From Candidatus Campbellbacteria bacterium GW2011_OD1_34_28 (GTDB lineage Bacteria; Patescibacteriota; Minisyncoccia; Phycocordibacterales; UBA12079), in assembly GCA_001029775.1 (NCBI GenBank), contig CP011215.1, positions 32,148-96,147 of the forward strand: 64,000 bases of DNA, given 5' to 3'. The notes beneath the pieces were generated by a model. The model made no database searches and was not told the DNA's origin. It saw only the letters and a list, made by a program, of their open reading frames with translations. The translations under genes and the position numbers were made by a program. Each line of letters starts with the position of its first letter. Position 1 is the stretch's first letter. Shown here piece by piece: positions 5,700-41,440 of the stretch.

Positions 5700-5905
5700 G
5701 GTCCATTTTTCAAAAAATTGTGGGTTGCTTCACTTCGTTCGCAAAGACGGATTTTGCGAAGCAAAATCCGTCACCCTCGTCGTCTTCGCGAGGCGAAGCC
5801 GAAGCGATCCACGTCGTTTTTTTTTGGATTCCTGCCTGTCGTGTTGTTGCTTTTCTTTCAGAAAAGAGGCGGGGCAAATTTCCCGCCTAAATCCTAAACC
5901 CTCTT
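5700..5905. repeat. GC-rich hairpin-dense intergenic repeat element, copy 1
   Basis: Perfect hairpin gacggattttgc-gaa-gcaaaatccgtc, the words cgtcttcgcgag and gaagcgatccacgtcg, and the terminal hairpin ggcggggcaaatttcccgcc followed by taaatcctaa. About 55% GC against a genome of about 33%. Confidence 0.6.
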
Positions 5906-5907
5906 AA

Positions 5908-6603
5908 TTATTTCTGCATCGTAACCACCCAAAATTTTCTTTTGAAAACCCTTCCGTTCACAGTAGAATAACTCTCTGTTTTTTTCATATCCAATATTTT
6001 AAAATATTTTGAATATATTTCTATAAAATTATCTTTTGAAAAAACTCTTTCTATCAAACCTGTTTCTGGCATTATATAAGTATCTTTTTCTCTAGCTGAG
6101 TTGTTTTTCAAAAGAAATTGAGCATTTTTATCTCCATCTTTACACAAAGCTCTCACAAAAAATATTCCGTCTTTTCTCAAAACACGATTTACTTCTGACA
6201 GATAAATTTCTCTTTCTGCTTCATCCAAAGAGTTAGAACTTGTGATATCAATAACCAGATCAAAATATTCATTTTCAAACGAATATTTTTCTCCAATACT
6301 TTGCTTTATATATTTAGCACCAAGATTTCCAGCTCTTGTTTTTGCTGTATCAATCGCAGTTTGAGAGATTTCCATACCAAAAACATCCGCCTGTTTTTCG
6401 GCTAAATAATTTGCATTTCTCCCAGTCCCCGATCCTAAATCCAAAACCCTTAACCCCTCAAAACTTACAGGGACTCGGTCCCTGTAAGTTTTGAGGTATG
6501 TTTTATACCATTTTAAAAATTTCAAAAAAACAGACTGCGGTTTGTCGTGTCCTGTTACCAATTTTGGATTTCTGTATTCTTTTTCCCAAATATCTTTTTG
6601 CAT
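5908..6603 (-). CDS. Class I SAM-dependent methyltransferase
   Basis: 231 aa. The VLDLGSGTGRNANYLAEK motif I is followed by DVFGMEIS and DLVID. Confidence 0.75.
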   Translation of the reverse strand: MQKDIWEKEYRNPKLVTGHDKPQSVFLKFLKWYKTYLKTYRDRVPVSFEGLRVLDLGSGTGRNANYLAEKQADVFGMEISQTAIDTAKTRAGNLGAKYIKQSIGEKYSFENEYFDLVIDITSSNSLDEAEREIYLSEVNRVLRKDGIFFVRALCKDGDKNAQFLLKNNSAREKDTYIMPETGLIERVFSKDNFIEIYSKYFKILDMKKTESYSTVNGRVFKRKFWVVTMQK

Positions 6604-6720
6604 AAAATAAATATACCAATATACGAATTATGCGAATAAAACGAATAAATACAAATATTAGGAATCGTTATTTGTAACGATTTGTATAATTCGTATCATT
6701 CGTATATTAGTATGTTTATC

Positions 6721-7485
6721 TTAAATTTTTGTCAGAATTTCGGGGTCACCATCTGTGATTAAAATAGTGTGCTCAAAATGTGCACTTCTACTGCCATCCG
6801 CAGTTCTAAAAGTATATCCATCTTTATCTAAAACAACATGTTTCTTTCCTTCATTCAACATCGGTTCAAGAGCGAGAACCATTCCCTTTTGCAATTTTGT
6901 CCCTTGTCCTTTCTTGCCAACATTTGCTATGTATGGCTCTTCATGGACATTTTTTCCAACGCCGTGTCCACCCAACTCATCTATTACACCAAATTTAAAA
7001 GGTTTAACAAAATTTTCAATAGCATATCCAATATCGCCTGTCTTGTTTCCTGCCCTAGCCTGTTTAATTCCTTCATACAAAGACTGTTTTGTTACCTCAA
7101 TCAATTTTTTTGCTTCTTTATCTATTTCTCCCACTCCAACCGTCATTGCCATATCGGTAACTAATCCGTTGTGAACAAGCCCTAAATCAATTCCCACAAT
7201 ATCACCTTCTTGTAACACCTTTTCATTACCCGATGAAATGCCGTGCACGACTTCATCGTTTACTGACACACACAAAGTAGCAGGATATGGAAATCTGGCC
7301 CCTTCCGGTTTGTAATGCAAAAAAGCAGGCTTGTCACCGCCTTCTCTAATCAACTGTTCGGCATAATCGTTTAAATCATTAATTACCGCCCCCGGAATAA
7401 CCTTTTTTGCTGTTTCATTCAAAATAAAGGCAAGTCTCTTGCCTCCTTCTCGTAATATATTTATTTCACTTTCTGTATATATCAT
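6721..7485 (-). CDS. map: Methionine aminopeptidase type I
   Basis: Conserved MetAP-I metal-ligand blocks (VVHGI, GDIVGIDLG, HGVGKNVHEEP, LALEPM, HFEHT). The start is moved to MIYTESEINILREG (ATG at 7483-7485) because the longer ORF would read through the upstream terminator hairpin. Confidence 0.88.
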   Translation of the reverse strand: MIYTESEINILREGGKRLAFILNETAKKVIPGAVINDLNDYAEQLIREGGDKPAFLHYKPEGARFPYPATLCVSVNDEVVHGISSGNEKVLQEGDIVGIDLGLVHNGLVTDMAMTVGVGEIDKEAKKLIEVTKQSLYEGIKQARAGNKTGDIGYAIENFVKPFKFGVIDELGGHGVGKNVHEEPYIANVGKKGQGTKLQKGMVLALEPMLNEGKKHVVLDKDGYTFRTADGSRSAHFEHTILITDGDPEILTKI

Positions 7486-7503
7486 TATTTTGAGTATACA
7501 AGT

Positions 7504-7530
7504 AAAAAAGTCTTGAAACAAGACTTTTTT
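7504..7530. terminator. Bidirectional rho-independent terminator
   Basis: aaaaaagtcttg-aaac-caagactttttt, a perfect palindrome. Confidence 0.65.
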
Positions 7531-7661
7531 AAACAACAAACTACAATCACCAAATCACAAACAAATTCAAAATAACAAATACGAAATCCGAGACAAGTGT
7601 TTATTATTTTGAAATTAAAATTTGTAATTTGTTTAGAATTTAAAGTTTAAAAAATCTGATT

Positions 7662-8255
7662 TTACAATCCGATTTTTTCAATCATTTCTTGATAAACTTG
7701 CTCTATCGTTTGTTCCCCATTTACCTCGACAAATTTATATGTTGAATTATTTTTTAAATATTCAATTGCTGGCAAAACATCTCTATCAAACCAATCCAAT
7801 CTTTTCTTTACCTGTTCCTCATCGTCATCATGTCTTCCCCTGCCCAACAATCTTGCTGTTGACCATTCACGAGAAACATTCATATATACAACAGTTGGAT
7901 CTTCTCTTTTATAAAATCTGATTGCAGAATCGAGTACTTCAGCTTCGTTCAAACGACGAGGTGTCCCGTCCAGAATAAGATGTTCACTGCCTTTCATTTC
8001 CTCAATCAGATCTTTTCCCCAAAGATACACAACCAAAAATTCTGGCTGTAATTCTCCTTTTTCAACAATTTCTCTTGAAAGTCTATTTGAATAACTATCA
8101 TTTTCCCAAAATTTTCTTAAAACATTACCTGTACTAATATAATTGATCCCGATTTCAGGATTTTTTTCTTGTAATTTTTTTGATAACAAATCAATCTGTG
8201 TTCCTTTTCCACAACCAGACCGACCGATAAAAATGTAGGTTTTTTGTGCAGACAT
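7662..8255 (-). CDS. adk: Adenylate kinase family (nucleoside monophosphate kinase)
   Basis: P-loop YIFIGRSGCGKGTQ, ILDGTPRRLNEAEVL, and the LID-region RGRHDDDEEQVKKRL. The start is set at MSAQKTY (ATG at 8253-8255). The 85 upstream codons of the track ORF lie in the GC-rich repeat and are rejected. Confidence 0.78.
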   Translation of the reverse strand: MSAQKTYIFIGRSGCGKGTQIDLLSKKLQEKNPEIGINYISTGNVLRKFWENDSYSNRLSREIVEKGELQPEFLVVYLWGKDLIEEMKGSEHLILDGTPRRLNEAEVLDSAIRFYKREDPTVVYMNVSREWSTARLLGRGRHDDDEEQVKKRLDWFDRDVLPAIEYLKNNSTYKFVEVNGEQTIEQVYQEMIEKIGL

Positions 8256-8289
8256 ACTAATATACAAATTATACGAATAATACTCTGAA

Positions 8290-8600
8290 TTATACTTGAT
8301 TTTCTGAAGCCCTGCCTCTTCTCTTCCAGGAAAGAGGCAGGGATTCACGAAGTTATTTTGGATTGCTTTGTCGTTTCGTTTCACTCCACTCCTCACAAAG
8401 ACGACGAAGTTGTCGTCTTTGTGAGGAGCTTGCGACGAAGCAATCCACGCCGTCCGTTCGTCGTTCTGGATCGCTTCGCTACCGCTCGCGAAGACGAAGT
8501 TTTGCTCCACAAAACTTCGTGACGAATTTCCGCAGGAAATTCGTCTTTGCGAGCGAAGCGAAGCAATCCACGTCGTTCATTTGTCTTCGTTACTATCGAC
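8290..8600. repeat. GC-rich hairpin-dense intergenic repeat element, copy 2
   Basis: Hairpins ccctgcctct..agaggcaggg, the 17-bp stem ctcctcacaaagacgac-gaagtt-gtcgtctttgtgaggag, gaagttttg..caaaacttc and gacgaatttcc-gcag-ggaaattcgtc, plus the family words gcgaagcaatccacgtcg and tctttgcgag. Confidence 0.6.
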
Positions 8601-11600
8601 TATAAACTATCGACTGTCGTCGTAGCTGTCGGTTCTACCACAGGATCTGTTGTCGTTGCTGGTTCTGTTGTTACAGCTGTTGAATCTTCAACAAGTACTG
8701 TTCTTGTACTTGTTGAAGTATTTGTTCCATCAAACGCTGTGTAAGTAACTGTGTATTCTCCGGCGATTGTTGTGTCTACTATATCTAGGTCGTGAGTATC
8801 TACTATTAGAGAGTTTCCTTGGTAGTCTACTGCTGTAGCGCCTAGATCAATATAGTTGCTGTTTATTTCTACTACGGCTGGGTTGTTGCCTGTGATTGTT
8901 ATAACTGGTGCGATAGCATTCTGGATTGCTTCGCTATCGTTCGCAGAGACGGAAGATGTGTTAGAAGAAGTATCTGTGTTTTCCAACAAACTTCTCAACT
9001 GATCTTTGTTTATACACACATCATCGATACAAATTTCTTGTCTCGCTTTTATTTTATCCGCAACCAATTCTGTAACCGAAGCCAAAACATTTGAAATTCT
9101 TTCATCCAATGTGTTTATCAATTCTTGCATTGCTTTTACAATCACCGAAGTCAATTTTGGATAATCAAGGTTCATGATAGTACCTTTGTCGTCGTGTCCG
9201 ATGACTTCGGGAATTAACAAGTCAACTTCTTCTGCGATGAATCCGATTTGAGTAGATGATGAATTAATAAAGTCTGATTTCCAATTGAATGATACAGGGC
9301 GTAATTGGAGTACTGTGTCTAGACCGTATGTTAGATCGTTTATGTTTGTTTTGAATCTCTCTGATGATGCTCCACAGGCGGTTGTTGATGTGGCTAGTTC
9401 TCCGCTGGTTGATATACAAGCGTAATAACCTGTTCCGTCGTTGGTTAGACCGGTGAAAGCAGCTGTTCCGTTTACGGAAAGAGTTCTCCATGGGGTGGTG
9501 GTGCCGATGCCGACGTTGCCACCGAAATAGTTCGTGCCACCTTGCGAATATATAGAATAATTATTTGAAGATCCTTTATTTGGAGTTTCTATGTATAGCT
9601 GATATTGATTGGCAAGGACACTGGCGCCTCCATTTTCATAATTATTAAGATAGATATTGTAAGCATTCGTCACATTACCAGACGATCCCCAAACGCCAGA
9701 ACCGGCTTCAGAATATATTCCATAGATATTGCCAATGTTAGCGGTGGATCCGGACATAGCTCCGCCATAAGCTGCTACTTTCATACCGTATATATTTGAT
9801 ATATTTGATACTCCTGCATTTTCCAATCCTGAAGCGGCAAAACCACTTGATTCTGTTCCAATTATAGTTGTCACATCTCCATTTCCATAGAAAGTTCCCT
9901 TGTTAACGGATCCCTTAATTTCTTGGGTATCGCCGGAACCATAAACTCTGGCATCAGAAAATGCTCCATAAACCCAATTAATATTACCATTTCCATCATG
10001 ATATGCTGTTGTTCTAATTCCTTGCATTCCTGAACTAGAAAAATTCGTATTATCTCCAAAAGGTGTTGAAATAGCATTATTAATACCAATACCTTGTCCT
10101 TCTTTTTCAATGCTCAGCTTCCCCAACGGACTCATCGTCCCCACACCCACATTCCCATTATTCAACACAGCAAACAAAGAAGTGGTTGCACTCGCTGTAG
10201 AGCTGGCGATATTGAACAAAGTTGTGTTTGTTTCTCCGTTGTTTGCGTGGATTGATAGTTTTGCAAAAGGTGAGGTGGTGCCGATGCCTATTTTGCCACT
10301 TGATAGAGTCGTTCCCGTTCCATTTATTCCTGTTCCAAAAATTAAGTTTCCAATGTTTAATTGATTTGAGGCGGTGGCAGAAGGAGCATCAACATCGTAA
10401 CCTATAACAAGGTTGTTTGATCCTGTTGTTAAATTATTACCTGCTTGGTATCCAAGAAAAATATTATTTGAACCAGAAACCAATGAACCTGCATTGTATC
10501 CAATACCAACACTCCTAGAAGGTGATCCCCCATAAGCCAAGGAATTTATGCCAATAGCGACATTATAACTTCCTGTACTGTTGTTATATAATACTGAATC
10601 TCCTATTCCAACGTTAGAAGCTCCTGTAGTATTTGAATAAAGTGACATATCTCCCACAGCGCTGTTCAATCCGCCTGTTGTATTTGAAACCAAAGATTCT
10701 GTTCCGAGAGCAATATTATAACCTCCGGAAATATTTGCATACAAAGACATTGATCCGCTTGCTATGTTACGAGAACCACCAATATTTGAAAATAAAGCAT
10801 AAGATCCTGAGGCTATATTATTATTTCCAGTCGTATTTGAATAAAGGGATGTGTATCCGCTGGCAACATTGTTGTATCCTTCGGTATTGAAATGCAAAGA
10901 CTTGTACCCAAAAGAAGCATTGAGATAGCCTGTCGTATTTGAATATAGCGACTGATATCCTACCGCTGCGTTTCTATAACCAGAAGTATTTGAACGCAAT
11001 GACTGATAACCAATACCAACATTATAATTATCTGTTAGATCATCACTTCTTCCAGCCTCATATCCAAAATAAGTAGAACCACCCAAACCGGTTTGAGAAA
11101 CCCTTCCATACACGGATAACTTTGCTCCTGCGTTTTCTGAGGTTGTTGTTCCAATACTAACTCTATTATTTACTGAATCAATAACCAGAGTATCTGTATC
11201 AAAAACAGCACTGTCTATTGTCAAATTTGAAATATTTCCGTTAGTAAAGTTTAATTCTGTTCCTGAAACATTTGAGGTGCTAATGTTTGAATCATAAATT
11301 TCAACCCCACCCAAATTATCTATATCGTTGGTAGCAGAGATCACTTGATATGTGTTGGTGATTTGAGCATTTGTATTTGATGAGAGTTTGTAGATTTCAC
11401 TTCTTAATTCGTTGTTTAGTTTTTGAAGATCTTCCAGTGTGACGCCTGGTGTTTGGATTACTCTTTCTACTACGGTTTCTTTTATTATTTCTCTGATTGG
11501 GTTTGTAACGATGGTGGTGGTCTTTGGGGTTGCGGGAACTGAAGGAACATTTTCCGAGATCTCACCTCTGTCCGCTTCGCTCTCCGAGGAAAGACCTCGG

Positions 11601-11869
11601 GAAATTTCGTCTTCGTTTGTGCTATTGGTTGTTAGCTGTCCACTGTCAGCTGTTTCTTCAGCGGAGCTGAAAAAACCCGAGATTGTTCTGTATACATAAA
11701 CAGCCGTCTTTTCAACGGTGTTCAAATTGGAAATATTTTGAACTTCACTCGCTTCAACTTTTTGTAGAAAAAGTAAATTATCATCATTTGCTAGAAAACC
11801 ACCTCCCAACATCAACATAACGGCAAATACGATAAAAAACTGTTTTATAAATTTATCAATAAGATTCAT
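8600..11869 (-). CDS. Giant secreted surface protein 1 (1089 aa), built like a phage tail fibre. Signal anchor, block shared with giant 2, 14-15-aa xNTAxGYxSLxSNTTG repeat array, intramolecular-chaperone (Peptidase S74) domain, coiled coil, DUF5011-type Ig domain, Thr/Pro-rich tail.
   Basis: N-terminal signal MNLIDKFIKQFFIVFAVMLMLGGG. About 20 tandem repeats of the type NAAVGYQSLYSNTTGYLNASFGYKSL. ASSERFKTNINDLTYGLDTVLQLRPVSFNWKSD...IGFIAEEVDLLIPEVI matches the tailspike C-terminal intramolecular-chaperone consensus. ITITGNNPAVVEINSNYIDLGATAVDYQGNSLIVDT...GEYTVTYTAFDG is DUF5011-like. Confidence 0.8.
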   Translation of the reverse strand: MNLIDKFIKQFFIVFAVMLMLGGGFLANDDNLLFLQKVEASEVQNISNLNTVEKTAVYVYRTISGFFSSAEETADSGQLTTNSTNEDEISRGLSSESEADRGEISENVPSVPATPKTTTIVTNPIREIIKETVVERVIQTPGVTLEDLQKLNNELRSEIYKLSSNTNAQITNTYQVISATNDIDNLGGVEIYDSNISTSNVSGTELNFTNGNISNLTIDSAVFDTDTLVIDSVNNRVSIGTTTSENAGAKLSVYGRVSQTGLGGSTYFGYEAGRSDDLTDNYNVGIGYQSLRSNTSGYRNAAVGYQSLYSNTTGYLNASFGYKSLHFNTEGYNNVASGYTSLYSNTTGNNNIASGSYALFSNIGGSRNIASGSMSLYANISGGYNIALGTESLVSNTTGGLNSAVGDMSLYSNTTGASNVGIGDSVLYNNSTGSYNVAIGINSLAYGGSPSRSVGIGYNAGSLVSGSNNIFLGYQAGNNLTTGSNNLVIGYDVDAPSATASNQLNIGNLIFGTGINGTGTTLSSGKIGIGTTSPFAKLSIHANNGETNTTLFNIASSTASATTSLFAVLNNGNVGVGTMSPLGKLSIEKEGQGIGINNAISTPFGDNTNFSSSGMQGIRTTAYHDGNGNINWVYGAFSDARVYGSGDTQEIKGSVNKGTFYGNGDVTTIIGTESSGFAASGLENAGVSNISNIYGMKVAAYGGAMSGSTANIGNIYGIYSEAGSGVWGSSGNVTNAYNIYLNNYENGGASVLANQYQLYIETPNKGSSNNYSIYSQGGTNYFGGNVGIGTTTPWRTLSVNGTAAFTGLTNDGTGYYACISTSGELATSTTACGASSERFKTNINDLTYGLDTVLQLRPVSFNWKSDFINSSSTQIGFIAEEVDLLIPEVIGHDDKGTIMNLDYPKLTSVIVKAMQELINTLDERISNVLASVTELVADKIKARQEICIDDVCINKDQLRSLLENTDTSSNTSSVSANDSEAIQNAIAPVITITGNNPAVVEINSNYIDLGATAVDYQGNSLIVDTHDLDIVDTTIAGEYTVTYTAFDGTNTSTSTRTVLVEDSTAVTTEPATTTDPVVEPTATTTVDSL

Positions 11870-11947: not shown

Positions 11948-12035
11948 GATTTCTTTCTATTTATATAGACCTGTCAATTTTTTAACCAAAAAATCTGACA
12001 AAGACTTTAAATATTCATCGTCATAAACAAAGACA
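11948..12035. repeat. Duplicated fragment of the obg 3' end and its downstream sequence
   Basis: About 85 bp (tatatagacctgtcaattttttaaccaaaaaatctgacaaagactttaaatattcatcgtcataaaca) nearly identical to 18905-18990 (the obg stop-codon region). Lies between giant genes 1 and 2. Confidence 0.7.
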
Positions 12036-12076
12036 ACATTCTCACAGAAAAAGAGGATTTTCGTCTGCATTATTCC

Positions 12077-15000
12077 CTATTGACTATCAACTACCGGTTC
12101 CGTCGTTGTAGCTACAGAATCTAGACTATCGACTATTGCCTCTTCAACAAGTACTATTCTCGTACTTGTTGAAGTCAGTGTTCCATCAAACGCTGTGTAA
12201 GTAACTGTGTATTCTCCTGCTGTTGTTGTGTCTACTGTATCTGCGTCTATTGTATCTACTATTAGAGAGTTTCCTTGATAGTCTACTGCTGTAGCGCCTA
12301 GATCAATATAGTTGCTGTTTATTTCTACTACGGCTGGGTTGTTGCCTGTGATTGTTATTGTGGGAGGAGTGGTGTTTGAAGGTTCTGCTGTTGGCTGTTG
12401 GCTGTTGGCTGTATTAGTGTTATCAACACCCTCTAAAGCATTCAATCTAGCTTCCAATTCATTCAATCTATTTTCAAGACCAGAAACTTTTGCGATCAAT
12501 TCTTGTGTCTTGTTCCAAATTTCCTTAATCGCATTTACCAAAACCGAAGTCAGCTTTGGATAATCAAGGTTCATGATAGTACCTTTGTCGTCGTGTCCGA
12601 TAACTTCGGGAATTAACAAGTCAACTTCTTCTGCGATGAATCCGATTTGAGTAGATGATGAATTAATAAAGTCTGATTTCCAGTTGAAAGATACAGGGCG
12701 TAGTTGAAGGACTGTGTCTAGACCGTATGTTAGATCGTTGATGTTTGTTTTAAATCTTTCTGACGATGCTCCACAAGCGGTTGTTGATGTGGCTAGTTCT
12801 CCTGTTCCAGCGTTGGCACAGACATAATAGCCAGTGCCGTTGTTAGCAAGACTTTGAAACGCTACTGTTCCATCTACGGTTAGTTTGTAATTTGGAGTAG
12901 TTGAACCGATTCCGATGTTGCCGGTTGAGATGGTTGTGCCGTTTCCATCTATACCTGTCCCAAAGATTAGATTTCCAATTGTCATTGTGTTATTACTTGT
13001 TGCCGTTGGTGAATCAATGTTGTAACCAATAACTATGTTGTTGTCTCCCGTTGTTAAGGTCTCTCCAGCCTGATAGCCAAGTAATATATTATTATCTCCT
13101 GTCGTTAAATTAACCCCAGATCGATACCCAATAATAACACCCCCCTGATTGTAGGATACTGTGCTAACACCTTGACCGGCTTGATAACCGATCGCAACAG
13201 TAGAAGTAGCTGATCCATTATATCGATTTGCCTGAGTACCTATTGCCACATTTGAAGAACCTGTTCGATTACTACGAAGAGATTCAGACCCAATTGAAGT
13301 ATTGTAAGTTCCTGTAGTATTTAAAGACAGCGAATCATATCCGAGAGCGCTATTATAATTTCCTGTGGTGTTATTAGTTAAAGAAAAACCGGCGGCCATA
13401 TTATAAGAACCTGTTGTATTTGCACCCATGCTTAAACCTCCAACGGCTGTATTATAAATTCCTGTTGTATTGACATCCAAGGCACCAGCTCCAACCGCGG
13501 TATTATAATAACCTGTAGTATTGGCTTTCAATGCTTGATAGCCTACAGCAGTATTACTACTACTTGTTGTTGCTAAATAAAGTGCTTCGTAACCCAAAGC
13601 GGTGTTATTTAGAGCACCACTCAACAAAGCGTTTCCTGCTCCAATACCGACAGAAACAGAACGACTGGTTGAAGAGGCAAAAAGTATTTTGCTTCCCCCA
13701 ATAGAATATCCTCCATTTGTTGTATCTGTAGAATTAAATGCTGTTGCAGAAATCGATGAGGTTGCTGTTAAACTATTGACGGTTAAATCACCAGATATCC
13801 ACGCACTACCTTCTACACTCAACTTTCTGAAAGGTGAGGTGGTGCCGATGCCCACATTCCCCTTCAAAGCCGTAGTTGTGATACTGTCATTTCCAAGAAC
13901 AACAGAGTTGCTTCCTACTCCTGTGGCATCGTAACCGATTACAATTTCGTTTTGGTCATTGTCAGCAAGGGCTTTGGTGTTGTAGCCTAAGAATGTATTG
14001 TAGTCTCCTGTTGTGTTACCTGTTGAGCCGTTGGCAATGTAGCGACCTGCATTGTATCCAAAGGCTATATTATAATGACCTGTGGAGTTAGCATAGAGAG
14101 AAGAATAACCAACTGCAGTGTTATACATACCCGTAGAGTTGGCATAAAGAGAAGTGTACCCACTTGCAGTGTTGTATCTGCCTGAAGTGTTTGAAAAGAG
14201 AGATTCATAACCACTTGCAGTGTTGTGATAACCGGAGGTGTTGGACTGAAGAGAAGAATATCCAATCGCGGTGTTGTGATAACCGGTGTTGTTGTTATAC
14301 ATAGAGCTACCACCATAAGCAGTATTACGGTAACCTGTGGTATTAAGGTATAAAGTAAAAATTCCACTTGCGGTGTTACCATAACCAGTATTATTGGTGA
14401 AAAGAGCATTAACACCATTTGCAGTGTTAAAGTAACCTAGAGTATTTGCATAAAGAGCACGGTAACCTGTTGCGGTGTTATAACTGCCATGACTTGCGCT
14501 TGTCGCCGTGCTACCCATCGTAAGATTTCCCGCTTCTTCTCCCACAAAAGTATTCTGTCCTGTTGTCGTCACAGTTCCGTTGTTTCCATAATTGAAATTA
14601 TGAATGAAACTTGTTCCGTTTTTTGAGATTACCCCGTATTGATTTGTATTAGTGGTGTTGTCCAAATTCAAATTACCTTGATAGATATCGAGTTTTGCAG
14701 AAGGAGTCATTGTTCCTATTCCTGTATACCCAGAAGGGCCAGCAAAAAAAGAAATGAAATCTTGAACTCCATCGTTTGTTCCTATTAAAACACTATTGGC
14801 AATATTATTATTTAAAGAACCTCCTCCTGATCCACTATAGCCAAAACCTATAGTAATTGATTTCGTCGCCGAAGCCTTCGCTGTGCCTCCTAAAACAACT
14901 GAATACTGACCGGCAGCTGTTGCCCCTCCTTTTCCAAAAACAGAAGAATACTGCCCACTAGCAATACCTGAACCAACAACAATAGACCCTTCACCTGTTG

Positions 15001-18000
15001 CACTACTACTTTCTCCTAATGCTATGGATTTCCATCCACTTGCAGAACCATTAATCATGGAAACATTAACGCCACCAGAAGAGTTAACCTTAAATCCATT
15101 AGACACTTCTAGTTTGGCTGTCGGACTCGCCGTCCCAATGCCCACATTCCCCGTACTCCTATCCACCACCAATTTGTTTGTTCCCACAGCAAAACCACCA
15201 GCAAAAGTAGAAGTTGCTGTTGTTGAAGTTGCGTTGAAATAGTCGGCAACGACATCTCCGACAACGGAAAGTTTTGCGAAAGGTGAGGTGGTGCCGATGC
15301 CGACATTTCCTCCTAAAAACACCCCTGCATAATTGTTGATTGCTCCTGTAGAAGCATTCACCAATAACCCGTAGGCATTTGTTACTACGGCTTGGCTTGT
15401 GCTCACTGGTTTAGTTGGCACAAGAATACTATAAGCATTTGTAATAGAAACATTTGCACTTGTGCTTTTCCAAGGCCATGCGGTGACTAAACTTGCTGCT
15501 TCTGTAACCACTTGATTTGCAGTAGTGCTATACAGTTGCATATTACCCAATTTAGTTCCGTATATTGTATCGTAAGTCGTTGGATCAGAACCAGATAGAG
15601 TTACAAGATGATCACGCAATGTTATTCCCGTAACGCCCGAAGATGTCAATGTGGTGACGGGATTAATATCAAGAAATGATGCAGGGGCGGTAGTATTGAT
15701 TCCTAAATATCCAGATGAATTTATTCTTGCTCTTTCAAATGTATTAGCTGAACTACTTGTTGTCCAAAAACTAAGGTATCCCTGTGCATTTCCACCGGTC
15801 GAATTTTCCTTTGCTCCTTTTATTGAACCAAAAGTCCAAAAACCAGTTGAACCGGAGTATACACCACCCAATCCGATGCTTCCCCCTTTATTAATCGCGT
15901 TTGTATCAGTAGACATTACAAGCATATTACCGGCATATTGGTCATTGCTACCCAATACTAAATCGCTTCCACGTATATCAAGCGTACGCTGTGGGTTTAT
16001 CGTACCAAGGCCCACAACAGGTGTCGCGAGGTTAATATTTGAAGTCAAGCCATTAACAACCAATCCTGAAAACTGAGGAGAATCAGTCGTTCGCAGACTC
16101 TGGCTCAATGAGACATTGCCACCACTAATTGAGAGATTTCTGACAGTTTCATTTTTAATCCAAGTGGTCCCTATATATATTGAATTTGCTAAAGCAATAT
16201 ACCCGGTCGGAGTTAGATGCAAATAATCAGCGAGAGCATACGAGGCAAGAAGGGTGTCAGGATTGGTTGGATCTTCGAGCGCAGAATAAGCATCTATCCT
16301 ATAGTCAACATCGGATGCCATGTTAAGTATCCAATTATTAACATCTTCTAAAACTACCTGACGAGCTTCCGTCCATGAAGTGCTAGTTTTAAACGGAGTA
16401 ATCGTAACAGCCACAACCTTAGATCCGTTGGCGTTAGCCGCAGTGTACATAGCTTGTAAATTACTTTCAATAGTGGCGGCAGATGCGTTTGCTGCTATAT
16501 CATTTATACCTCCCAGGATAATTACATATTCAGCATCGTCAACTACTACATCACCAGAAAAACGCGCTGCCATTTGTGTAGTAGTATTGCCTCCAACGCC
16601 TTTGCTATTCACATTCCATAATGCCCCCAGTAAATCAGCCAATGCACTTCCATAGTTTGTTAAGCTATCACCTATAGCATATACTTGATGAGTTTGAAGA
16701 ATGTTCACTTTATTCAGAGAAATATCTCCGTTTACATCAAACTTCGCTCCCGGACTCTCCGTCCCCACCCCCACATTCCCTGTAGAATAATCAACAACAA
16801 ATTTGTTTGTTCCAACAGCCAAACCTCCTGCAAATGTAGAAGTTGCTGTGGCTGATGTTGCTGTAAAGTAAGGGGCAGAAATTGAACTTGTGGCAGTAAT
16901 TGAATTAGCGGTTAAATCACCACTGATCCACGCATTACCTTCTACACTCAACTTTCTGAAAGGTGAAGTCGTCCCAATCCCAACATTTCCACTTGCTCTC
17001 CAAACATCTGTTCCGTTGGATGTCCAATTACCAACGGCTGAACCTGATAAAAGATTACCACCCCAGTATAAATCATTGGAGATGTTGTAAAGTCTGTCGG
17101 TTGTGATTGATGGAGCTGATATTGGTGCAAGGTATGTTGCTCCGTTTACTGAAAGAGTATCTGAAGGTGTTGTTGATCCGATGCCTACACGGTTGTTGAT
17201 TGAATCGATGTAAAGAGTGTCTGTGTCAAAGATTGTGTCTCCTGATACGGTAAGAGTGTTTAGAGTGGTGTTGCCTGTTACAGTTAGATTGCCAGAGTAT
17301 GTTCCACTGGTTGCAGAAATAGGGCCACCGTATGTAGAGGTAGCTGTGCCTGTGACAGTTAGGTTTTGAATTGTTCCGTTGGTAAAGCTTAGTTCTGTTC
17401 CTGAGACATTTGAGGAACTGATGTTTGAGTCGGTGATTGTGACACTACCCAGATTGTCGATGTTGTTAGTAGCAGAGATTACTTGGTAGGTGTTGGTGAT
17501 TTGAGCATTTGTATTTGAAGAGAGTTTGTAGATTTCACTTCTCAGTTCGTTGTTTAGTTTTTGAAGATCTTCCAGTGTGATGCCGGATGTTTGGATTACT
17601 CTTTCTACAACAACTTCTTTGATTATTTCTCTGATTGGGTTTGTAACGATGGTGGTGGTCTTTGGAGTTGCGGGAACTGAAGGAACATTTTCCGAGATCT
17701 CGCCTCTGTCCGCTTCGCTCTCCGAGGAAAGACCTCGAGAAATTTCGTCTTCGTTTGTGCTATTGGTTGTTAGCTGTCCGCTGTCAGCTTCGTCAACGCT
17801 ATCAGCTGTTGGCTGTAAGCTATCAGCTTCGTTACTAAACAAATTATTAACAAACTTATACCAAACAATCGCAAACTGTTCCACAGGACTTGCTGTTTCG
17901 TAGACTGCTAAAGCTAGGTTGTTTACACCCGTCTTCGCGAACGAAGTGAAGCGACCTGCCTCGCCGGCAGGCAGGTCCATGTCGTCCGTTTTCTGGATTG

Positions 18001-18639: not shown

Positions 18640-18895
18640 CACAGACGAAAACGAAGCTGACAGCGGACAGTCAATAGCTAACAGCACGGATGATGTGGAT
18701 TGCTTCGCTACGCTCGCAATGACGACGAAGGTGACGGAATTTCGTTTTGCGAAATTCCGTCTTCGCGAGGAGTGAAGCGACCTGCCTCGCCGACAGGCAG
18801 GTCGTTTCACCTTCGGTTCGCAAAGACGGACAAAGGCGGGAAATTTGCTTCGCAAATTTCCCGCCTAAATTCTAATTTCTAATTTCTAAATTCTC
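18640..18895. repeat. GC-rich hairpin-dense intergenic repeat element, copy 4
   Basis: Hairpins gacggaatttcg-tttt-gcgaaattccgtc and gacctgcct-cgccgac-aggcaggtc, the 12-bp stem ggcgggaaattt..aaatttcccgcc, the words ggattgcttcgc, cttcgcgagg and tcgcaaagacgg, and a tail ctaattt x3. Confidence 0.6.
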
Positions 18896-18899: not shown

Positions 18900-19874
18900 T
18901 TATTTATATAGCTCTGTCAATTTTTTAACCAAAAAATCTGACAAAGACTTTAAAGATTCATCGTCATAAACAGAAACAGAGACAACATCTTCACAATATT
19001 TTCTCAATTTTTCTTCCGCCTTTTTTGTTGTCTTGCTGTCAACCAAATCAGTCTTTGTCAAAATAATAATCTCGGATTTTTCAGCCAATTCTGGATCAAA
19101 TTTTTTCAATTCATTTTTAATTGTTTTATATGCTTTTACAACATCTTCATTTTCAAGAGAAATACAGTGCAAAAGAAGTTTTGTCCTTTTTATATGTCTT
19201 AAAAACTTGTGTCCCAAACCTTTTCCCTCTGATGCCCCTTCTATAAGCCCCGGAATATCCGCCAAAATATATTTGTACAATTCTCCCAAATTTGGTTCCA
19301 ATGTTGTAAAAGGATAAGCTCCCACTTTTGCATTTGCACGAGTTAATTCGTTAAGCAAAGAAGATTTTCCAGCACTTGGCAAACCGATAAGACCAGCGTC
19401 CGCAATCAATTCTAGCTCAATAAAAAATTCTGCGTCTTCGCCTTTTTTCCCCTCCGTAGATTCTACTGGGCTAGTATTTTTTGAACCCTTAAAATTTTCA
19501 TTTCCCAAACCGCCGTGACCTCCTTTCAAAACCAAAATATTCTCTCCCTCCTTAATCAATTCAAATTTTTCATCAGTTATCAAATTTTTTACAATAGAAC
19601 CAATAGGCAAATCAATAAACAAATCATCACCATTTTTTCCATGCATACTATTTTTCTCTCCATTTCCTCCGTTTTCCGCAGTAAACTTTTTATTTTTTGT
19701 GTAACGAGAAAGAACCTCTATATCTCTAATTGCACGAATATAGACATCGGCACCTTTTCCGCCATTGCCCCCAGCAGGACCCATAAGAGGTTTGTATTTT
19801 TCTCTTCTCCATCTAACAACACCGTCTCCCCCTTTTCCGGCTCTGGCATAAATTTTTAGTTCATCTATTAACAT
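18900..19874 (-). CDS. obg: GTPase Obg/CgtA
   Basis: The Obg fold Gly-rich N-domain (KIYARAGKGGDGVVRWRREKY...GGNGGKGADVYI) followed by a G-domain with GLPSAGKSSLLN, DIPGLIEGA and LTKTDL. The start is chosen at MLIDELKIY (19874); the track ORF extends 12 codons further. Confidence 0.85.
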   Translation of the reverse strand: MLIDELKIYARAGKGGDGVVRWRREKYKPLMGPAGGNGGKGADVYIRAIRDIEVLSRYTKNKKFTAENGGNGEKNSMHGKNGDDLFIDLPIGSIVKNLITDEKFELIKEGENILVLKGGHGGLGNENFKGSKNTSPVESTEGKKGEDAEFFIELELIADAGLIGLPSAGKSSLLNELTRANAKVGAYPFTTLEPNLGELYKYILADIPGLIEGASEGKGLGHKFLRHIKRTKLLLHCISLENEDVVKAYKTIKNELKKFDPELAEKSEIIILTKTDLVDSKTTKKAEEKLRKYCEDVVSVSVYDDESLKSLSDFLVKKLTELYK

Positions 19875-19918
19875 AAGAGACAGTATATATGTAGCAAAAA
19901 TAAAGAGCAACTTTTATT

Positions 19919-36324: not shown

Positions 36325-36349
36325 AGATTAAATTTTAACATAAAAAAAT

Positions 36350-36388
36350 AAAAACTATCCGCGATTTAGCGGACAGTTTTTATTTTTT
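36350..36388. terminator. Rho-independent terminator
   Basis: ctatccgc-gattta-gcggacag (7 of 8 bp) flanked by A5 and T5AT6. Confidence 0.5.
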
Positions 36389-36391
36389 CAT

Positions 36392-36790: not shown

Positions 36791-36874
36791 AATAGTTAAA
36801 AATTAATTTAATAAAATAAATTATAACATACAAAAAACATGCTCGTGAAAATTTAATAAATTACAATTTTAATA

Positions 36875-38509: not shown

Positions 38510-38514
38510 AAAAG

Positions 38515-38556
38515 TAAGTATAAAGTTAAAAGTTTATAAAGTCTATAAAGTTATTT
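38515..38556. repeat. Tandem TATAAAG(T) 9-mer-like array (minus-strand orientation CTTTATAGA / CTTTATAAA) directly upstream of the helicase start
   Basis: gtataaagttaaaagtttataaagtctataaagtta; the reverse complement carries 3 CTTTATAxA units. Confidence 0.45.
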
Positions 38557-38564
38557 AAATTAAA

Positions 38565-38590
38565 CAAAAATCGCCAAAGGCGATTTTTGT
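38565..38590. terminator. Bidirectional rho-independent terminator downstream of secA
   Basis: aaaaatcgcc-aaa-ggcgattttt. Confidence 0.65.
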
Positions 38591-38626
38591 TTTCTACATT
38601 CGTTCTTGCTACCTACTACTTTTTAC

Positions 38627-41158
38627 TTATTTCCCGTGGCACTTTTTATATTTTTTGCCCGACCCACAAGGACACAAATCATTTCTTCCAATCTTTTCTT
38701 CTTCCCCTTTTACAATAGGTTGTTGATTTTTTTCTGTACCAGATCCTTCTTGTTCTGCAATATTTTTTGCACTCTCATGAGTCGCTTTCAATTGTTGTTG
38801 TTCTCTAACAAAAGCCCCCTCTCCCATACTTGGCAAAAAGTGCAAAATCTTTTCGTTGATCACCCACTGCATTTCTTTAAACATAGTCAGTCCCTCTCTC
38901 TTGTATTCTACAAGAGGGTCTCTTTGGCCATAAGCACGCAAGTTAACAGACGATCTCAAATAATCCATTACTTCTAGATGTTCCACCCAAAGCATGTCAG
39001 TTGTCTGCAAAAGCAATCTTCTCATTACCGTAAAAAATTCTGCTTCCCCCAAAGTATCTTTTTTGTCTTGAACAAGTTTTTCCATTTCTTCTTTTGTGCC
39101 AAAAACCTCGTTTGCCAAAGCAATTGTTCTAGGAGAATAAACATCCTCAATTATTTCATTCAAAAAATCGGAGATCTCTTCATTTGCTCCAAACAAAATT
39201 CTTCTTCTCTTTTCATAAACAATTTTTCTTTGGAAATTTAAAACATCGTCATATTGTAAAACATGTTTTCTTGAATCAAAGTTGAATCCTTCTATTTTTG
39301 TCTGAGCCGATTCCAAAGAACGAGTAATCATTTTGTTTTGTATCGGTTCGTCTTCTGGAATACCCAATCTGCCCATCATGTTTTTTACCATGTCAGATGC
39401 GAATATCCTCATTAGAGAGTCCTCCAAAGAAACAAAAAATTGTGTTTCTCCTGGATCGCCCTGTCTTCCCGAACGACCTCGCAACTGATTATCAATTCTC
39501 CTTGAATCATGTCTTTCAGTACCGATAACAAACAAACCACCCAAAGATTTTACTTCTTCATATTTTGTCTTATCAAAAGGTACACCTCCTAGTTTGATAT
39601 CTACTCCACGACCTGCCATATTGGTTGCAATAGTTACTCTGCCCTTTTCTCCAGCACGAGCGACGATCTCTCCTTCTCTCTCGTGATTTTTTGCATTCAA
39701 CAATTCGTGTTTTACTCCTTCTGCTTTCAAATATTGTGAAAGCAATTCATTTTTTTCAATAGAAACAGTACCAATCAAAACAGGTTGGCCGTTTTTATTT
39801 AATTCTTTTATCTTTTTAGCAAGCGCTTTAAATTTTCCTGTCTCTGTTTGAAAAATCAAATCATCTCTGTCTATTCTCTTTATTTCCCTATGTGTTGGAG
39901 CAACAGTTGTTTCCAAACCATAAACTTTATAAAATTCTTCTGCCGATGTTTTGGCTGTACCTGTCATACCCGACAATTTTTTGTATAGGCGGAAATAATT
40001 TTGGAAAGTAATAGAAGCGAAGGTACGAGATTCTTTTTGAACTTTCAGCCCTTCCTTTGCTTCAATCGCTTGGTGTAAACCATCAGACCATCTTCTTCCT
40101 GGTTGCATACGACCAGTAAATTCATCCACGATAACAACCTCGCCTTCTCTTACAACATATTCTTTGTTTGCACTGAACAAAGCCTTTGCTCTGACCGCTG
40201 TTTCCAAATGGTGAACAAATTTAATTCCTCTCTCTGTATAAATATTTTCTATTCCCAAAAACTTCTCCGCTTTCTCAATTCCCAAATCTGTCATCTTTAT
40301 TGCTTTGTATTTTTCTTCAACGGTAAAATCTTGGTCTTTTATCATTGTCTGCGCAATCTTTGCAAATTTTGCGTAAAGATCTTCTGACTCTGTTGTCGGA
40401 GCAGAAATAATCAACGGAGTTCTCGCCTCATCAATCAAAATAGAATCTATCTCGTCTACAATCGCAAAATTGTAACCACGTTGACGGATTTCTTCTTTTC
40501 TATATTCAATATTGTCTCTCAAATAATCAAAACCAAATTCATTGTTTGTTCCATAAGTGATATCAGCATCGTATGCCTGTTGTCTTGTACAGGGACGCAA
40601 AAATTCATTTACAACTTTGTATGATCCCTCTTCGTCTCTTTCTTCATCCAACTCTTTGTGGTTGGGGTCATAAATATAAGAAGCTTCACTGTTTATTATT
40701 CCAACGCTCAATCCCAAAAATGAATAAATCTGTCCCATCCAAACGGCATCTCTTCGTGAAAGATAATCGTTTACCGTAACAACGTGAACTCCTTTTCCTG
40801 AAAGTGCATTTAAATAAACTGGCAAGGTCGCTACCAAAGTTTTTCCTTCTCCTGTTCTCATCTCGGCGATTCTTCCTTGATGCAAAATAACACCTCCGAT
40901 CAACTGAACATCATAATGCCTTTCATTCAAATTTCTTTTTGATGTTTCTCGAACAACAGCAAAAGCTTCGGGAAGTAAATTATCCAACGCTTCTCCCTCT
41001 TTTAATCTATTCTTAAATTCTTGTGTTTTTGCTTTCAAATCATCATCGGACAAAGAAGAAACCTCGCTTTCAAGAGAATTTATTTTTTCTACGATTGGTT
41101 GTATTTTTTTCAAATACTTTTTATTTTCGTCACCAAAAATGTTCTTAATATTCATCAT
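38627..41158 (-). CDS. secA: Preprotein translocase ATPase SecA
   Basis: 843 aa. DEAD motor GKGVHVVTVNDYLSRRDA, the preprotein-crosslinking domain, and a C-terminal zinc-binding tail CPCGSGKKYKKCHG. Confidence 0.92.
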   Translation of the reverse strand: MMNIKNIFGDENKKYLKKIQPIVEKINSLESEVSSLSDDDLKAKTQEFKNRLKEGEALDNLLPEAFAVVRETSKRNLNERHYDVQLIGGVILHQGRIAEMRTGEGKTLVATLPVYLNALSGKGVHVVTVNDYLSRRDAVWMGQIYSFLGLSVGIINSEASYIYDPNHKELDEERDEEGSYKVVNEFLRPCTRQQAYDADITYGTNNEFGFDYLRDNIEYRKEEIRQRGYNFAIVDEIDSILIDEARTPLIISAPTTESEDLYAKFAKIAQTMIKDQDFTVEEKYKAIKMTDLGIEKAEKFLGIENIYTERGIKFVHHLETAVRAKALFSANKEYVVREGEVVIVDEFTGRMQPGRRWSDGLHQAIEAKEGLKVQKESRTFASITFQNYFRLYKKLSGMTGTAKTSAEEFYKVYGLETTVAPTHREIKRIDRDDLIFQTETGKFKALAKKIKELNKNGQPVLIGTVSIEKNELLSQYLKAEGVKHELLNAKNHEREGEIVARAGEKGRVTIATNMAGRGVDIKLGGVPFDKTKYEEVKSLGGLFVIGTERHDSRRIDNQLRGRSGRQGDPGETQFFVSLEDSLMRIFASDMVKNMMGRLGIPEDEPIQNKMITRSLESAQTKIEGFNFDSRKHVLQYDDVLNFQRKIVYEKRRRILFGANEEISDFLNEIIEDVYSPRTIALANEVFGTKEEMEKLVQDKKDTLGEAEFFTVMRRLLLQTTDMLWVEHLEVMDYLRSSVNLRAYGQRDPLVEYKREGLTMFKEMQWVINEKILHFLPSMGEGAFVREQQQLKATHESAKNIAEQEGSGTEKNQQPIVKGEEEKIGRNDLCPCGSGKKYKKCHGK

Positions 41159-41204
41159 TTATTTTTTTAGCTTTAAATTACGAAATACTCTGGGTAGCAA
41201 TATT

Positions 41205-41440
41205 GCTTAAATTTTCTCTCAAAAAATTAAAAGTGCTATCGCTCGCGAAGAGAAACGAGGACATCGTGGATCGCGTCGCTTCGCTCGCGAAGACGAATTT
41301 TCTGAAAGAAAATTCGTTGACGAAGTTGGGCTTTGCCCAACTTTGTCTTTGCGAGCCTTGGCGAAGCAATCCACGTCGTCGTTCGTCTTTGCGAGCCTTG
41401 GCGAAGCAATCCAGTTTCGTAATTCAAAGTTCTTTTATTA
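41205..41440. repeat. GC-rich hairpin-dense intergenic repeat element, copy 5
   Basis: Hairpins gacgaattttct-gaaa-gaaaattcgt and gaagttgggc-tttg-cccaacttt. A tandem direct repeat tcgtctttgcgagccttggcgaagcaatcca x2. The words ctcgcgaag and gcgaagcaatccacgtcg. Confidence 0.6.

Follow-up and report, generated by a model that had tools for sequence, protein, structure and literature searches.

The stretch of DNA analyzed here, 64,000 nucleotides of contig CP011215.1 from Candidatus Campbellbacteria bacterium GW2011_OD1_34_28 (hereafter the window), derives from a groundwater bacterium from Rifle that belongs to the Campbellbacteria (Patescibacteria, or candidate phyla radiation, CPR). The nearest homologues of its proteins carry the names Candidatus Campbellbacteria or Pacebacteria. 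The window has a GC content of 35.0%, and nearly all of its genes are located on the minus strand. It contains five GC-rich islands (5700-5905, 8290-8600, 17925-18045, 18640-18895 and 41205-41440), which an initial annotation had described as five copies of an intergenic, non-coding element of about 55% GC. All five islands are indeed present and enriched in GC (0.476, 0.486, 0.545, 0.492 and 0.449 for islands 1 to 5 versus 0.350 for the window), although the figure of 55% is true of island 3 only. They consist largely of copies of one short palindromic unit with a CGTC tag, which is of the repetitive extragenic palindrome (REP) type. The neighbouring genes ndk, adk, secA, murB and the giant genes were confirmed, and a gene for an S-adenosylmethionine (SAM)-dependent methyltransferase and obg were added to the list (Table 1). 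Islands 1, 2, 4 and 5 are intergenic, each lying between co-directional genes. Island 3 (17930-18027), however, is in frame within the open reading frame (ORF) 12077-18541 on the minus strand. The same islands occur in the independent assemblies from NCBI (GCA_000990765.1, LBQI01000001.1), JGI (a Rifle groundwater contig) and ENA.

The words shared by the islands clearly exceed chance. When up to two mismatches were allowed, GCGAAGCAATCCA was found 12 times against 1.13 expected occurrences, and with up to one mismatch CGTCTTYGCGAG was found 14 times against 0.15 expected; none of 100 shuffles reached 12 or 14, respectively. Perfect hairpins with fully (100%) complementary arms of 9-17 bp are present as originally described, as are both tails of the form GGCGGG..CCCGCC-TAAAT(T/C)CTAA. 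The hairpins of these tails, which had been counted as part of the repeat family, nonetheless belong to a separate terminator-like element. The proposal that ORFs across the islands are artefacts holds for 7662-8510 and 41203-41802, but not for island 3. Both island 3 and a sixth site that had been overlooked (8922-8951) are in frame in continuous ORFs, 12077-18541 and 8600-11869 on the minus strand, and homologous proteins confirm that these are coding.

Sequence and structure of the repeat unit

The repeated unit is a monomer of 29-45 nt, and five copies was therefore too low a count: the five islands and the sixth site hold 12 complete copies, six per strand, together with three rearranged or partial ones. 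The unit reads 5'-CGTC-(A/T)TTGC-GA-GC-GNA-GC-GAA-GCAAT-CCA-3' and is composed of an unpaired CGTC tag, an outer stem of 4-5 bp, a purine internal loop, an inner stem of 2 bp, a GNA or GNNA loop and a CCA tail. Its apex is the 'mini-hairpin' GCGNAGC, which can be replaced by a variable insert. Neither of the modules TGGATTGCTTCGC and CTCGCRAAGACG occurs without the other, their order never changes, and on the opposite strand they make up a single unit. To recognize the unit we used a covariance model, R1, built from 39 distinct monomers that were taken from loci of non-CPR genomes only. Applied to the window, R1 recovered 12 copies with E-values from 9e-18 to 5.9e-6, and the next match had an E-value of 0.12. 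The copies thus align beyond chance and are recognized by a model derived from other phyla. Together with a design that matches that of CGTC-type REPs, this bears out the earlier suggestion of a REP-like family.

Column and base-pair statistics were obtained from 78 distinct short-form monomers from all fetched loci. Eight columns are invariant among these monomers and 11 more are conserved to at least 90%, while variation is greatest at the N of the GNA loop (A 31, C 23, T 13, G 11). The tag is CGTC in 11 of the 12 window monomers and TGTC in one, its columns 2-4 (GTC) being invariant among the 78. The CCA tail is found in all 12 window monomers; columns 27-28 are invariant and column 29 is an A in 73 of 78. 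The second stem pair is T-A in 76 of the 78 monomers. The first is A-T in 41 of them but in only one of the 12 window copies, the others having T or C opposite T. Three stem pairs covary, namely 7-24 (UA 61, CG 8, UG 3), 12-18 (GC 71, AU 5) and 13-17 (CG 69, UG 4, UA 2). Double changes filled 15 cells versus 2.3 in shuffles, none of 500 shuffles reached 15, and the signal collapsed in shifted registers. The fold supported in this way has 5 bp, a GA/GAA internal loop, 2 bp, and either a GNA loop of 3 nt (4 nt in two window copies) or an insert of 7-22 nt, and the minimum-energy fold predicted for the canonical monomer as single-stranded DNA (ssDNA) is the same structure. In monomer 5721-5749 the apex stem is AC/GT in place of GC/GC, which is a compensatory change. 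The apex forms seen in the window are GCGAAGC, GCGTAGC and GCGGTAGC, with the GCGNNAGC form in two copies. A stop codon interrupts only 9 of the 72 frames in which the 12 window monomers can be read; the canonical unit has one stop, which is lost through the T-for-A exchange at unit position 5 that is typical of the Campbellbacteria genome.

The apex of the monomer is exactly the DNA mini-hairpin d(GCGNAGC)/d(GCGNNAGC) of Hirao and co-workers, with N as the most variable position. These mini-hairpins are extraordinarily stable: they melt near 80 °C, resist nucleases and bind single-strand binding protein poorly, while as RNA the motif is much less stable (PMC13037366). They have been described at replication origins of ssDNA phages and at N4 promoters, not as a genomic repeat family (PMC13037366), and we infer that this literature is relevant to the unit studied here.

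Within the window, tag-inside dimers and clusters are the dominant forms. The tag-inside monomers are separated by unique, perfectly complementary spacer hairpins, and the pairs fold as long hairpins. The predicted ssDNA folds of the tag-to-tag dimers have z-scores of −5 to −11: −28 kcal/mol and z −5.35 for the pair 5721-5749 and 5781-5811 (5721-5811), −32.8 kcal/mol and z −10.5 for the pair 8359-8403 and 8414-8447 (8359-8447), and −43.7 kcal/mol and z −10.9 for 8467-8570. The other arrangements are one tags-outside pair (8414-8496), one tandem pair (41344-41413) and rearranged units with a CCTGCC..GGCAGG palindrome. It should be noted here that a related genome (locus L128) contains a variant monomer, CGTCATTGCGA-(AGGCTTTAACCT)-GTGGCAATCCAG, whose apex is an inner hairpin instead of GCGNAGC (10240-10273, 10716-10746, 11178-11211). 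These variants adjoin toxin-antitoxin genes and show the heterogeneity of the superfamily.

Distribution across bacterial phyla

Genomes were scanned, one per species, with the pattern GGATTGCTTCG-N(1-14)-TCGCRAWGACG, which yielded at least 120 loci. The matches listed are mostly from Alphaproteobacteria (Bradyrhizobium, sphingomonads, Methylobacterium, Rickettsiales); further listed matches are from Gammaproteobacteria (Legionella, Coxiellaceae, Solimonas), Bacteroidota, Fibrobacter, Melainabacteria, Armatimonadetes, Acidobacteriota and metagenome-assembled genomes (MAGs) of Bacillota. The motif is also present in Rickettsiales MAGs and a Tisiphia genome (L032, L062, L121, L122). Monomer 18696-18724 is identical in 29 of 29 positions to copies in Sphingomonas, Bradyrhizobium, Pseudolabrys, a Fibrobacter MAG and a Bacteroidales MAG, and copies identical to monomer 8542-8570 were found in 18 fetched loci. 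In metagenomes the CGTCTTYGCGAG form, which is the commonest in the window, was found in at least 120 stretches on contigs of 30-72% GC. Viral contigs of IMG/VR gave at least 120 stretches with the pattern GGATTGCTTCG…TCGCRAWGACG, and ten plasmid records carry the unit, with nothing annotated beneath the matches. Contamination or assembly chimeras are an unlikely cause of these cross-phylum matches, because the same islands occur in the independent NCBI, JGI and ENA assemblies.

Elsewhere, the usual form is a tags-outside dimer of about 80 nt, which consists of CGTCATTGCGAG..GAAGCAATCCAG, a spacer of about 20 nt, and CTGGATTGCTTCG..CTCGCAATGACG. We found 78 distinct dimers of this kind in other genomes and analyzed 74, half of which (37/74) are heterodimers of a short and a long monomer. 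The window pair formed by 8414-8447 and 8467-8496 aligns end to end with such head-to-head dimers of more than 25 other genomes.

A full-text literature search with the motif words returned only chance matches to primers. Of the papers naming a CPR taxon, none of the ten best-ranked contains the term 'repetitive extragenic palindrom…', and a REP survey of 2025 does not mention CPR bacteria. Rfam searches of the window and 15 loci of other phyla gave no match at the gathering threshold except for one tRNA, and generic miRNA-type hairpins under permissive settings. A tRNA/tmRNA scan was negative.

Relation to known palindromic repeats

CGTC-tagged REPs have been described as a superfamily of four families, CGTC-1 to CGTC-4, from five phyla (Di Nocera, De Gregorio and Rocco 2013, BMC Genomics 14:522). 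In that account the units have an unpaired CGTC (TGTC/CCTC) tag, begin their stem with A/T pairs and end in a CCA tail, and they occur mostly as tags-outside heterodimers between co-directional or convergent genes, with tag-inside dimers and clusters being rare. Stems of 8-9 bp and loops of 4-5 nt are given for the four families, which are presented without an associated transposase, and the authors state that bulged units may have escaped their search (Di Nocera 2013). RPE-4 and RPE-6 of Rickettsia are listed there as CGTC-4 and CGTC-1 units, and dRS3 of Neisseria as a CGTC-1 unit. Copy numbers of CGTC-type REPs are described as very uneven among species (PMC3733652).

With the superfamily as described, the present unit shares the CGTC (sometimes TGTC) tag, the CCA tail and the inverted dimers that are mostly heterodimers, as well as the location between co-directional genes near the upstream ORF, the presence of units within genes, the lack of an associated transposase and, among the matches listed, a distribution mainly in Alphaproteobacteria. 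The A/T-opening stem is shared in part, in that the second pair nearly always agrees but the first seldom does so in the window. Its host phylum, the Patescibacteria, lies outside the five phyla reported in that article. Among the peptides given for REPs of CGTC-1 to CGTC-4 in Additional file 3 of the same article (VIPAKAGI, SFPRKRES, WIPWSNHGMT, VIAGLDPAIH and others), none corresponds to VIASEAKQS, SLRAKRSNP or DCFASLAMT. The unit is probably an undescribed sequence family of the CGTC superfamily, set apart by the dimensions and peptides in the published description, although it may overlap with the 'Bradyrhizobium CGTC-1 with other loops' of that article.

Other known elements share parts of this design. 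The GTAG REPs and REPINs, which are associated with REP-associated tyrosine transposases (RAYTs), and the bacterial interspersed mosaic elements (BIMEs) of E. coli are likewise short imperfect palindromes with an unpaired tetranucleotide tag, form inverted doublets that fold as long structures, and build mosaics with linkers; action as ssDNA is presumed for both kinds. The tag is CGTC here, however, and not GTAG, and no RAYT gene is flanked by window-type units. Moreover, the window-type unit is conserved across phyla, and GTAG REP families are largely lineage-specific. The Neisseria dRS3 elements and the neisserial intergenic mosaic elements (NIMEs) are intergenic mosaics built alternately of CGTC-type inverted repeats and variable segments, but the dRS3 stem ATTCCC..GGGAAT is unlike that of the window unit. 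The dRS3 repeats are linked to phage or IS110-type integration. Overall, the arrangement in the window resembles the BIME and NIME mosaics. Rickettsia palindromic elements (RPEs) also insert in frame into genes, including those for housekeeping enzymes, add a short peptide and differ in their sites between relatives. Their monomer sequence is probably different, and the hosts here are free-living or episymbiotic CPR bacteria. QMITE2 of Coxiella, for which relatives in Bradyrhizobium have been reported, is by its description a GTAG REP (GTAG-3 type) and hence a different element.

Copies within genes and differences among relatives

Giant gene 2 is a single open frame from the ATG at 18541 to 12077, with a promoter-like site before the start. 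Island 3 corresponds to residues 172-204 (SSLRGVYDEAIQKTDDMDLPAGEAGRFTSFAKT) of the N-terminal linker of its product. At this place, an orthologue from a Pacebacteria MAG (L123, 68% identical) carries only one monomer, the counterpart of 17994-18027, the difference being an indel of 75 nt or 25 codons. About 100 nt further downstream the same orthologue has three more in-frame monomers and a spacer hairpin that are missing from the window, and still other combinations of in-frame units are found in other homologues of the giant genes. The monomer in giant gene 1 lies in the linker between the S74 and Ig-like domains (..SVSANDSEAIQ..), and it is missing from the paralogue. In MurB of relatives, in-frame units are found independently at two different sites (L125 and L128). 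The L125 insert is a hairpin plus monomer of 57 nt encoding DFAKQNPSLRAKRSNPE, in which the spacer hairpin of 5746-5772 recurs, and the unit in L128 encodes FVIASAKRVAIQ. Predicted peptides that span in-frame units include SSLRGVYDEAIQK in giant protein 2 and PSLRAKRSNPE in MurB of L125. In all, the inserts add 10-35 residues, which in the giant surface proteins fall in linkers and in MurB in two variable loops.

Loci of close relatives (SecA 80-86% identical; 139 kb in total) contain REPs in 5 of 11 cases and lack them in 6 of 11. A possible 'empty site' for island 4 exists in the window at the duplicated 3' end of obg, where REPs are absent, but the homology ends at the stop codon and the site is suggestive only.

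The murB-secA spacer

The spacer between murB and secA, which holds island 5, is 98% identical between the window and the relative L125 over about 300 nt, with 58-59 of 60 positions identical in five consecutive 60-nt windows. The flanking murB and secA genes, in comparison, are about 82% identical at the DNA level, and their products 80% and 86% identical. The next spacer upstream (42487-42579) is 70-80% identical with gaps, and other spacers cannot be aligned. Island 5 is absent from eight more relatives, so that the comparison rests on L125 as the one second lineage. A composite mobile cassette was ruled out as the cause of this identity, as the non-REP parts of island 5 have no second copy in any fetched locus. 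Such identity requires that the spacer as a whole is under purifying selection or was exchanged recently.

Among relatives, the content of the murB-secA spacer varies. The spacer holds a REP island in the window and in L125, and small ORFs or toxin-antitoxin genes in L128 and L373. In L126 (8843-9630), L127 (8843-9630) and L130 (3130-3945) it holds a gene for a RAYT-like Y1 transposase with the HuH motif NHFHL and the motif YIHRNP. This gene is flanked by a palindrome of its own, TGTGCTAAGCTTAGC(TT)AGCACA, and the best NCBIfam match of its product is the REP-associated tyrosine transposase, with 39-46 bits versus a cut-off of 80. Together, gene and palindrome resemble a CPR REPtron that belongs to another REP type. 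As a candidate for the enzyme of the CGTC units the Y1 gene was rejected, since it goes with another palindrome and without CGTC units. A conserved promoter-like box, TGTGGTAAAGTATA..CTGTAATA (TGTGGTAAAGTA..TGTAATA), lies directly upstream of secA in relatives (L130 3960-3990, L131 455-480). In the window the same box (41423-41482) overlaps the murB stop codon and lies upstream of island 5, which suggests that island 5 was inserted between the secA promoter and the start codon.

Origin and possible roles of the islands

The repeat family is genuine; its unit is near-unchanged across many phyla, its presence differs among close relatives, and it is read through in frame in genes. Taken as a whole, the islands are probably best explained as mosaics of one REP-type palindromic repeat that is selfish, is copied as ssDNA in trans and survives in tolerant sites. 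The units would then be non-autonomous selfish DNA, copied as an ssDNA hairpin by a trans-acting enzyme, which may be of the HuH/RAYT type or another type. A compact genome offers few sites that tolerate such units, and they would persist there, in the gaps that separate co-directional genes and in flexible linkers of proteins; survival inside genes is possible because the monomer is almost free of stops in all six frames. Effects on neighbouring transcripts (termination, stability, leader structure) would be likely by-products, although selection may have turned such an effect into a function at the secA site. Selfish DNA of this kind is known; the host and the family member are new, but the kind of element is not.

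Several observations weigh against a selfish, mobile REP. No mobilising enzyme was found: the window has no Y1 or HuH gene, a comparison of the relatives' Y1 protein with all fetched loci gave no homologue beyond one short fragment, and an all-against-all clustering of ORFs from the 120 listed REP loci revealed no recurrent neighbour gene, with no family in more than 14 loci. No transposition event has been observed, the evidence being presence and absence among relatives. Target-site duplications, which the initial annotation had proposed to look for, were not seen by inspection at the borders of dimers of other genomes, at the island 3 indel or at the MurB insert, the location of the indel borders in variable protein regions making this a weak test. 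Given this result and the lack of long terminal inverted repeats bounding the element, the previously suggested likeness to miniature inverted-repeat transposable elements finds no support. With regard to design, the stem of the window unit is an interrupted 5+2 bp with a loop of 3-4 nt or an insert, as opposed to the 8-9 bp and 4-5 nt described for CGTC-1 to CGTC-4, and the unit was for this reason filed under the CGTC superfamily only and in none of its four families. The clusters and tag-to-tag dimers that dominate the window are rare in the CGTC families as described, tags-outside dimers being commoner elsewhere. The nearest-neighbour energy of a lone monomer is no better than that of shuffled sequences (z about 0), in a model that has no mini-hairpin bonuses. 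Finally, vertically inherited neutral junk could not have stayed as similar as island 5, which is 98% identical between lineages with flanking genes that are about 82% identical.

An alternative that we regard as unlikely but not negligible is that the islands are primarily cis-acting or small structured RNAs, for instance 3'-end stabilisers or terminators, or a 5' leader such as that of secA, and that the family is kept for this function. The placement of all intergenic islands between co-directional genes, the stem changes that are compatible with G-U pairing, and the conservation of the murB-secA spacer next to a poorly conserved neighbouring spacer are in line with such a role, and the promoter-like box upstream of island 5 means that this island may be part of the secA leader. 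However, the copies are distributed six per strand, some are in frame within genes, their sites differ among close relatives and they have no Rfam match, while the exceptional stability of the apex motif is specific to DNA. Moreover, islands 1 and 4, at which little transcription is expected, are each preceded by a terminator-like hairpin that trails the upstream gene and followed by a promoter-like site, and the conservation signal stems from a single pair of lineages.

It is quite improbable that the units are binding sites of a host DNA-binding protein (gyrase, a nucleoid protein or integration host factor, as reported for the E. coli BIMEs) that organise supercoiling or domain boundaries. 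Conservation of the sequence across phyla does go far beyond what the structure needs (8 invariant columns and 11 conserved to at least 90% in 78 monomers), and the mosaic arrangement is BIME-like (discussion in PMC3733652). Nevertheless, no candidate protein is known, copies in coding regions would be odd binding sites, and patchy occurrence in sister lineages together with very uneven copy numbers among species (PMC3733652) argues against a general chromosomal role. As secondary functions, small structured RNAs and protein binding are both conceivable.

Even less credible is the idea that the islands are relics of REPtrons, in which a RAYT-type Y1 gene once resided with its REPs at these sites, mobilised the repeats and was then lost. 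The Y1_Tnp gene of L126, L127 and L130 does lie exactly between murB and secA, at the place of island 5, and its best NCBIfam match is of the appropriate kind. Yet it is flanked by TGTGCTAAGCTTAGC..AGCACA rather than by CGTC units, CGTC REPs are absent from the 22 kb of these three loci, the NCBIfam score does not reach the cut-off, and neither the window nor the surroundings of 240 REP loci contain a Y1 homologue. Chance GC-rich words, codon runs, a CRISPR or an assembly artefact, for which only the elevated GC content speaks, are refuted by the shuffle controls, the R1 E-values, the covariation and the lack of regular direct repeats, as well as by the recurrence of the islands in independent assemblies and a related species; as the initial annotation had also concluded, there is no regularly spaced direct-repeat array, the units being in both orientations at irregular spacing with a sole tandem pair of two copies and a 40-nt period.

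The explanation as selfish REP mosaics can be extended to a broader scenario, which we put forward only tentatively and which, in all its parts together, is rather doubtful. The unit would represent an undescribed fifth CGTC-type REP family that phages and plasmids carry along, that is near-identical from Alphaproteobacteria to Bacteroidota, Fibrobacterota and Patescibacteria, and whose copying enzyme recognises the DNA mini-hairpin and the CGTC tag. In the ultra-small genomes of CPR bacteria it would also be undergoing domestication, giving rise to linker peptides of giant surface proteins and MurB and to a sequence-constrained leader or insulator between murB and secA. If true, the latter role would explain the 98% versus 82% identity.

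In the literature checked, these are the first REP-type repeats in CPR bacteria, the genomes of which are thought to be streamlined and poor in repeats. The machinery that mobilises CGTC-type REPs has been an open question since 2013, and a near-identical family with a DNA-specific apex provides a good handle on it. The two leads that follow from the present data are the cross-phylum identity without a known enzyme and the conserved island close to secA. The in-frame copies in MurB and giant surface proteins indicate that 'selfish DNA inside genes' of the Rickettsia type also shapes CPR proteins. In practical terms, the units create spurious ORFs and peptides (DCFASLAMT, GLLRFARND, SLRAKRSNP), break assemblies and go unannotated in public records.

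Features of the window and minor observations

Table 1. Genes, REP monomers and associated hairpins in the window. R1 scores are given in bits with E-values (E).
Feature	Position	Strand	Score or remark
ndk	5065-5643		Pfam
REP monomer CGTC-TTTGC-GAA-CGAAGT-GAA-GCAAC-CCA	5721-5749	-	R1 37.1 bits, E 6.7e-12
Perfect 12-bp spacer hairpin GACGGATTTTGC-GAA-GCAAAATCCGTC between tag-to-tag monomers	5746-5772		
REP monomer	5781-5811	+	R1 29.7 bits, E 6.5e-9; tag-inside (TT) dimer with 5721-5749, one long hairpin
Terminator-like hairpin GGCGGGAAATTTGCCCCGCC with T-rich tail, just downstream of methyltransferase stop	5867-5888	-	non-REP family
SAM methyltransferase	5908-6603	-	Pfam
map	6721-7539		Pfam
adk	7662-8255		Pfam
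16-bp non-REP hairpin upstream of adk	8305-8347		
REP monomer with 22-nt inner insert	8359-8403	-	pattern match; whole copy not detected by R1
REP monomer, long form (GAGCTTGCGAC insert as in Bradyrhizobium copies)	8414-8447	+	R1 22.3 bits, E 5.9e-6
REP monomer, apex GCGGTAGC (GCGNNAGC form)	8467-8496	-	R1 34.1 bits, E 1.1e-10
Two perfect spacer hairpins, 11-12 bp, between tag-to-tag monomers	8493-8546		
REP monomer, short form	8542-8570	+	R1 48.4 bits, E 2e-16
Giant gene 1	8600-11869	-	S74 chaperone domain and Ig-like domain
REP monomer in frame in giant gene 1	8922-8951	-	R1 29.2 bits, E 1e-8
Giant gene 2	12077-18541	-	S74 chaperone, Ig-like and GDSL lipase domains
REP monomer in frame in giant gene 2, 3' arm split by 21-nt palindrome CCTGCC..GGCAGG	17930-17982	+	R1 26.7 bits, E 9.9e-8 (17930-17957)
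REP monomer, long form, in frame in giant gene 2 (SSLRGVYDEAIQ)	17994-18027	-	R1 30.7 bits, E 2.7e-9
Canonical REP monomer CGTCATTGCGAGCGTAGCGAAGCAATCCA	18696-18724	-	R1 51.7 bits, E 9e-18
Perfect 12-bp spacer hairpin GACGGAATTTCG-TTTTG-CGAAATTCCGTC	18733-18761		
Rearranged pair: REP 5' halves CGTCTTCGCGAG .. TCGCAAAGACG around 16-bp hairpin GTGAAGCGACCTGCCT/AGGCAGGTCGTTTCAC	18758-18830	+	R1 10.4 bits only
15-bp terminator-like hairpin downstream of obg	18834-18866	-	same family as 5867-5888; weak T-run, terminator scan negative
obg	18900-19910	-	Pfam
secA	38627-41158		Pfam
Whole murB-secA spacer holding island 5	41159-41451		98% identical to orthologous spacer of L125
REP monomer	41267-41295	-	R1 40.6 bits, E 2.7e-13
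Spacer hairpins GACGAATTTTCT-GAA-AGAAAATTCGT and GACGAAGTTGGGC-TTT-GCCCAACTTTGTC	41292-41347		
Tandem REP monomers 41344-41373 and 41384-41413, 40-nt period	41344-41413	+	R1 32.8 and 35 bits
murB	41452-42486		Pfam

The terminator-like hairpins GGCGGG..CCCGCC with the tail TAAAT(T/C)CTAA constitute a second small repeat family, which is found right after stop codons (5825-5899 and 18834-18875 in the window; 9312-9360 in L124, another Campbellbacteria genome). A site that follows a giant gene in L124 shares 94% identity with the sequence 5825-5873. Of the two window hairpins, only that of island 1 was identified by the terminator scan.

Giant genes 1 and 2 are tandem paralogues with blocks of 86-92% identity. 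Their S74/Ig-like domains are C-terminal, and the product of giant gene 2 has an N-terminal membrane anchor. A second copy of the obg 3' end lies upstream of giant gene 1 (11958-12035 versus 18901-18978, 94% identical); this copy, which has no REP island, is a trace of the tandem duplication that produced both giant genes. A third giant gene is located at 22496-29182 on the minus strand. The upstream end of island 4 (GAAGCTGACAGCGGACAG.., 18650-18690, plus strand) resembles, in inverted form, the linker-coding DNA GACGAAGCTGACAGCGGACAGCTAACAACC of both giant genes (17700-17760, minus strand), parts of which also look like decayed REP and spacer sequence. AT-rich short tandem repeats are found beside islands, such as the TAATTTC units after obg (18867-18895), and in L123 an array of GTAAGGN heptamers of about 140 nt (9690-9830) lies upstream of the giant-gene orthologue. 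Finally, a perfect 19-bp palindrome, CCTCAAAACTTACAGGGAC..GTCCCTGTAAGTTTTGAGG, is located at 6456-6496 near the 5' end of ORF 5908-6603; it falls within the methyltransferase gene, unless translation truly starts further downstream, in which case it lies in the spacer between map and this gene.

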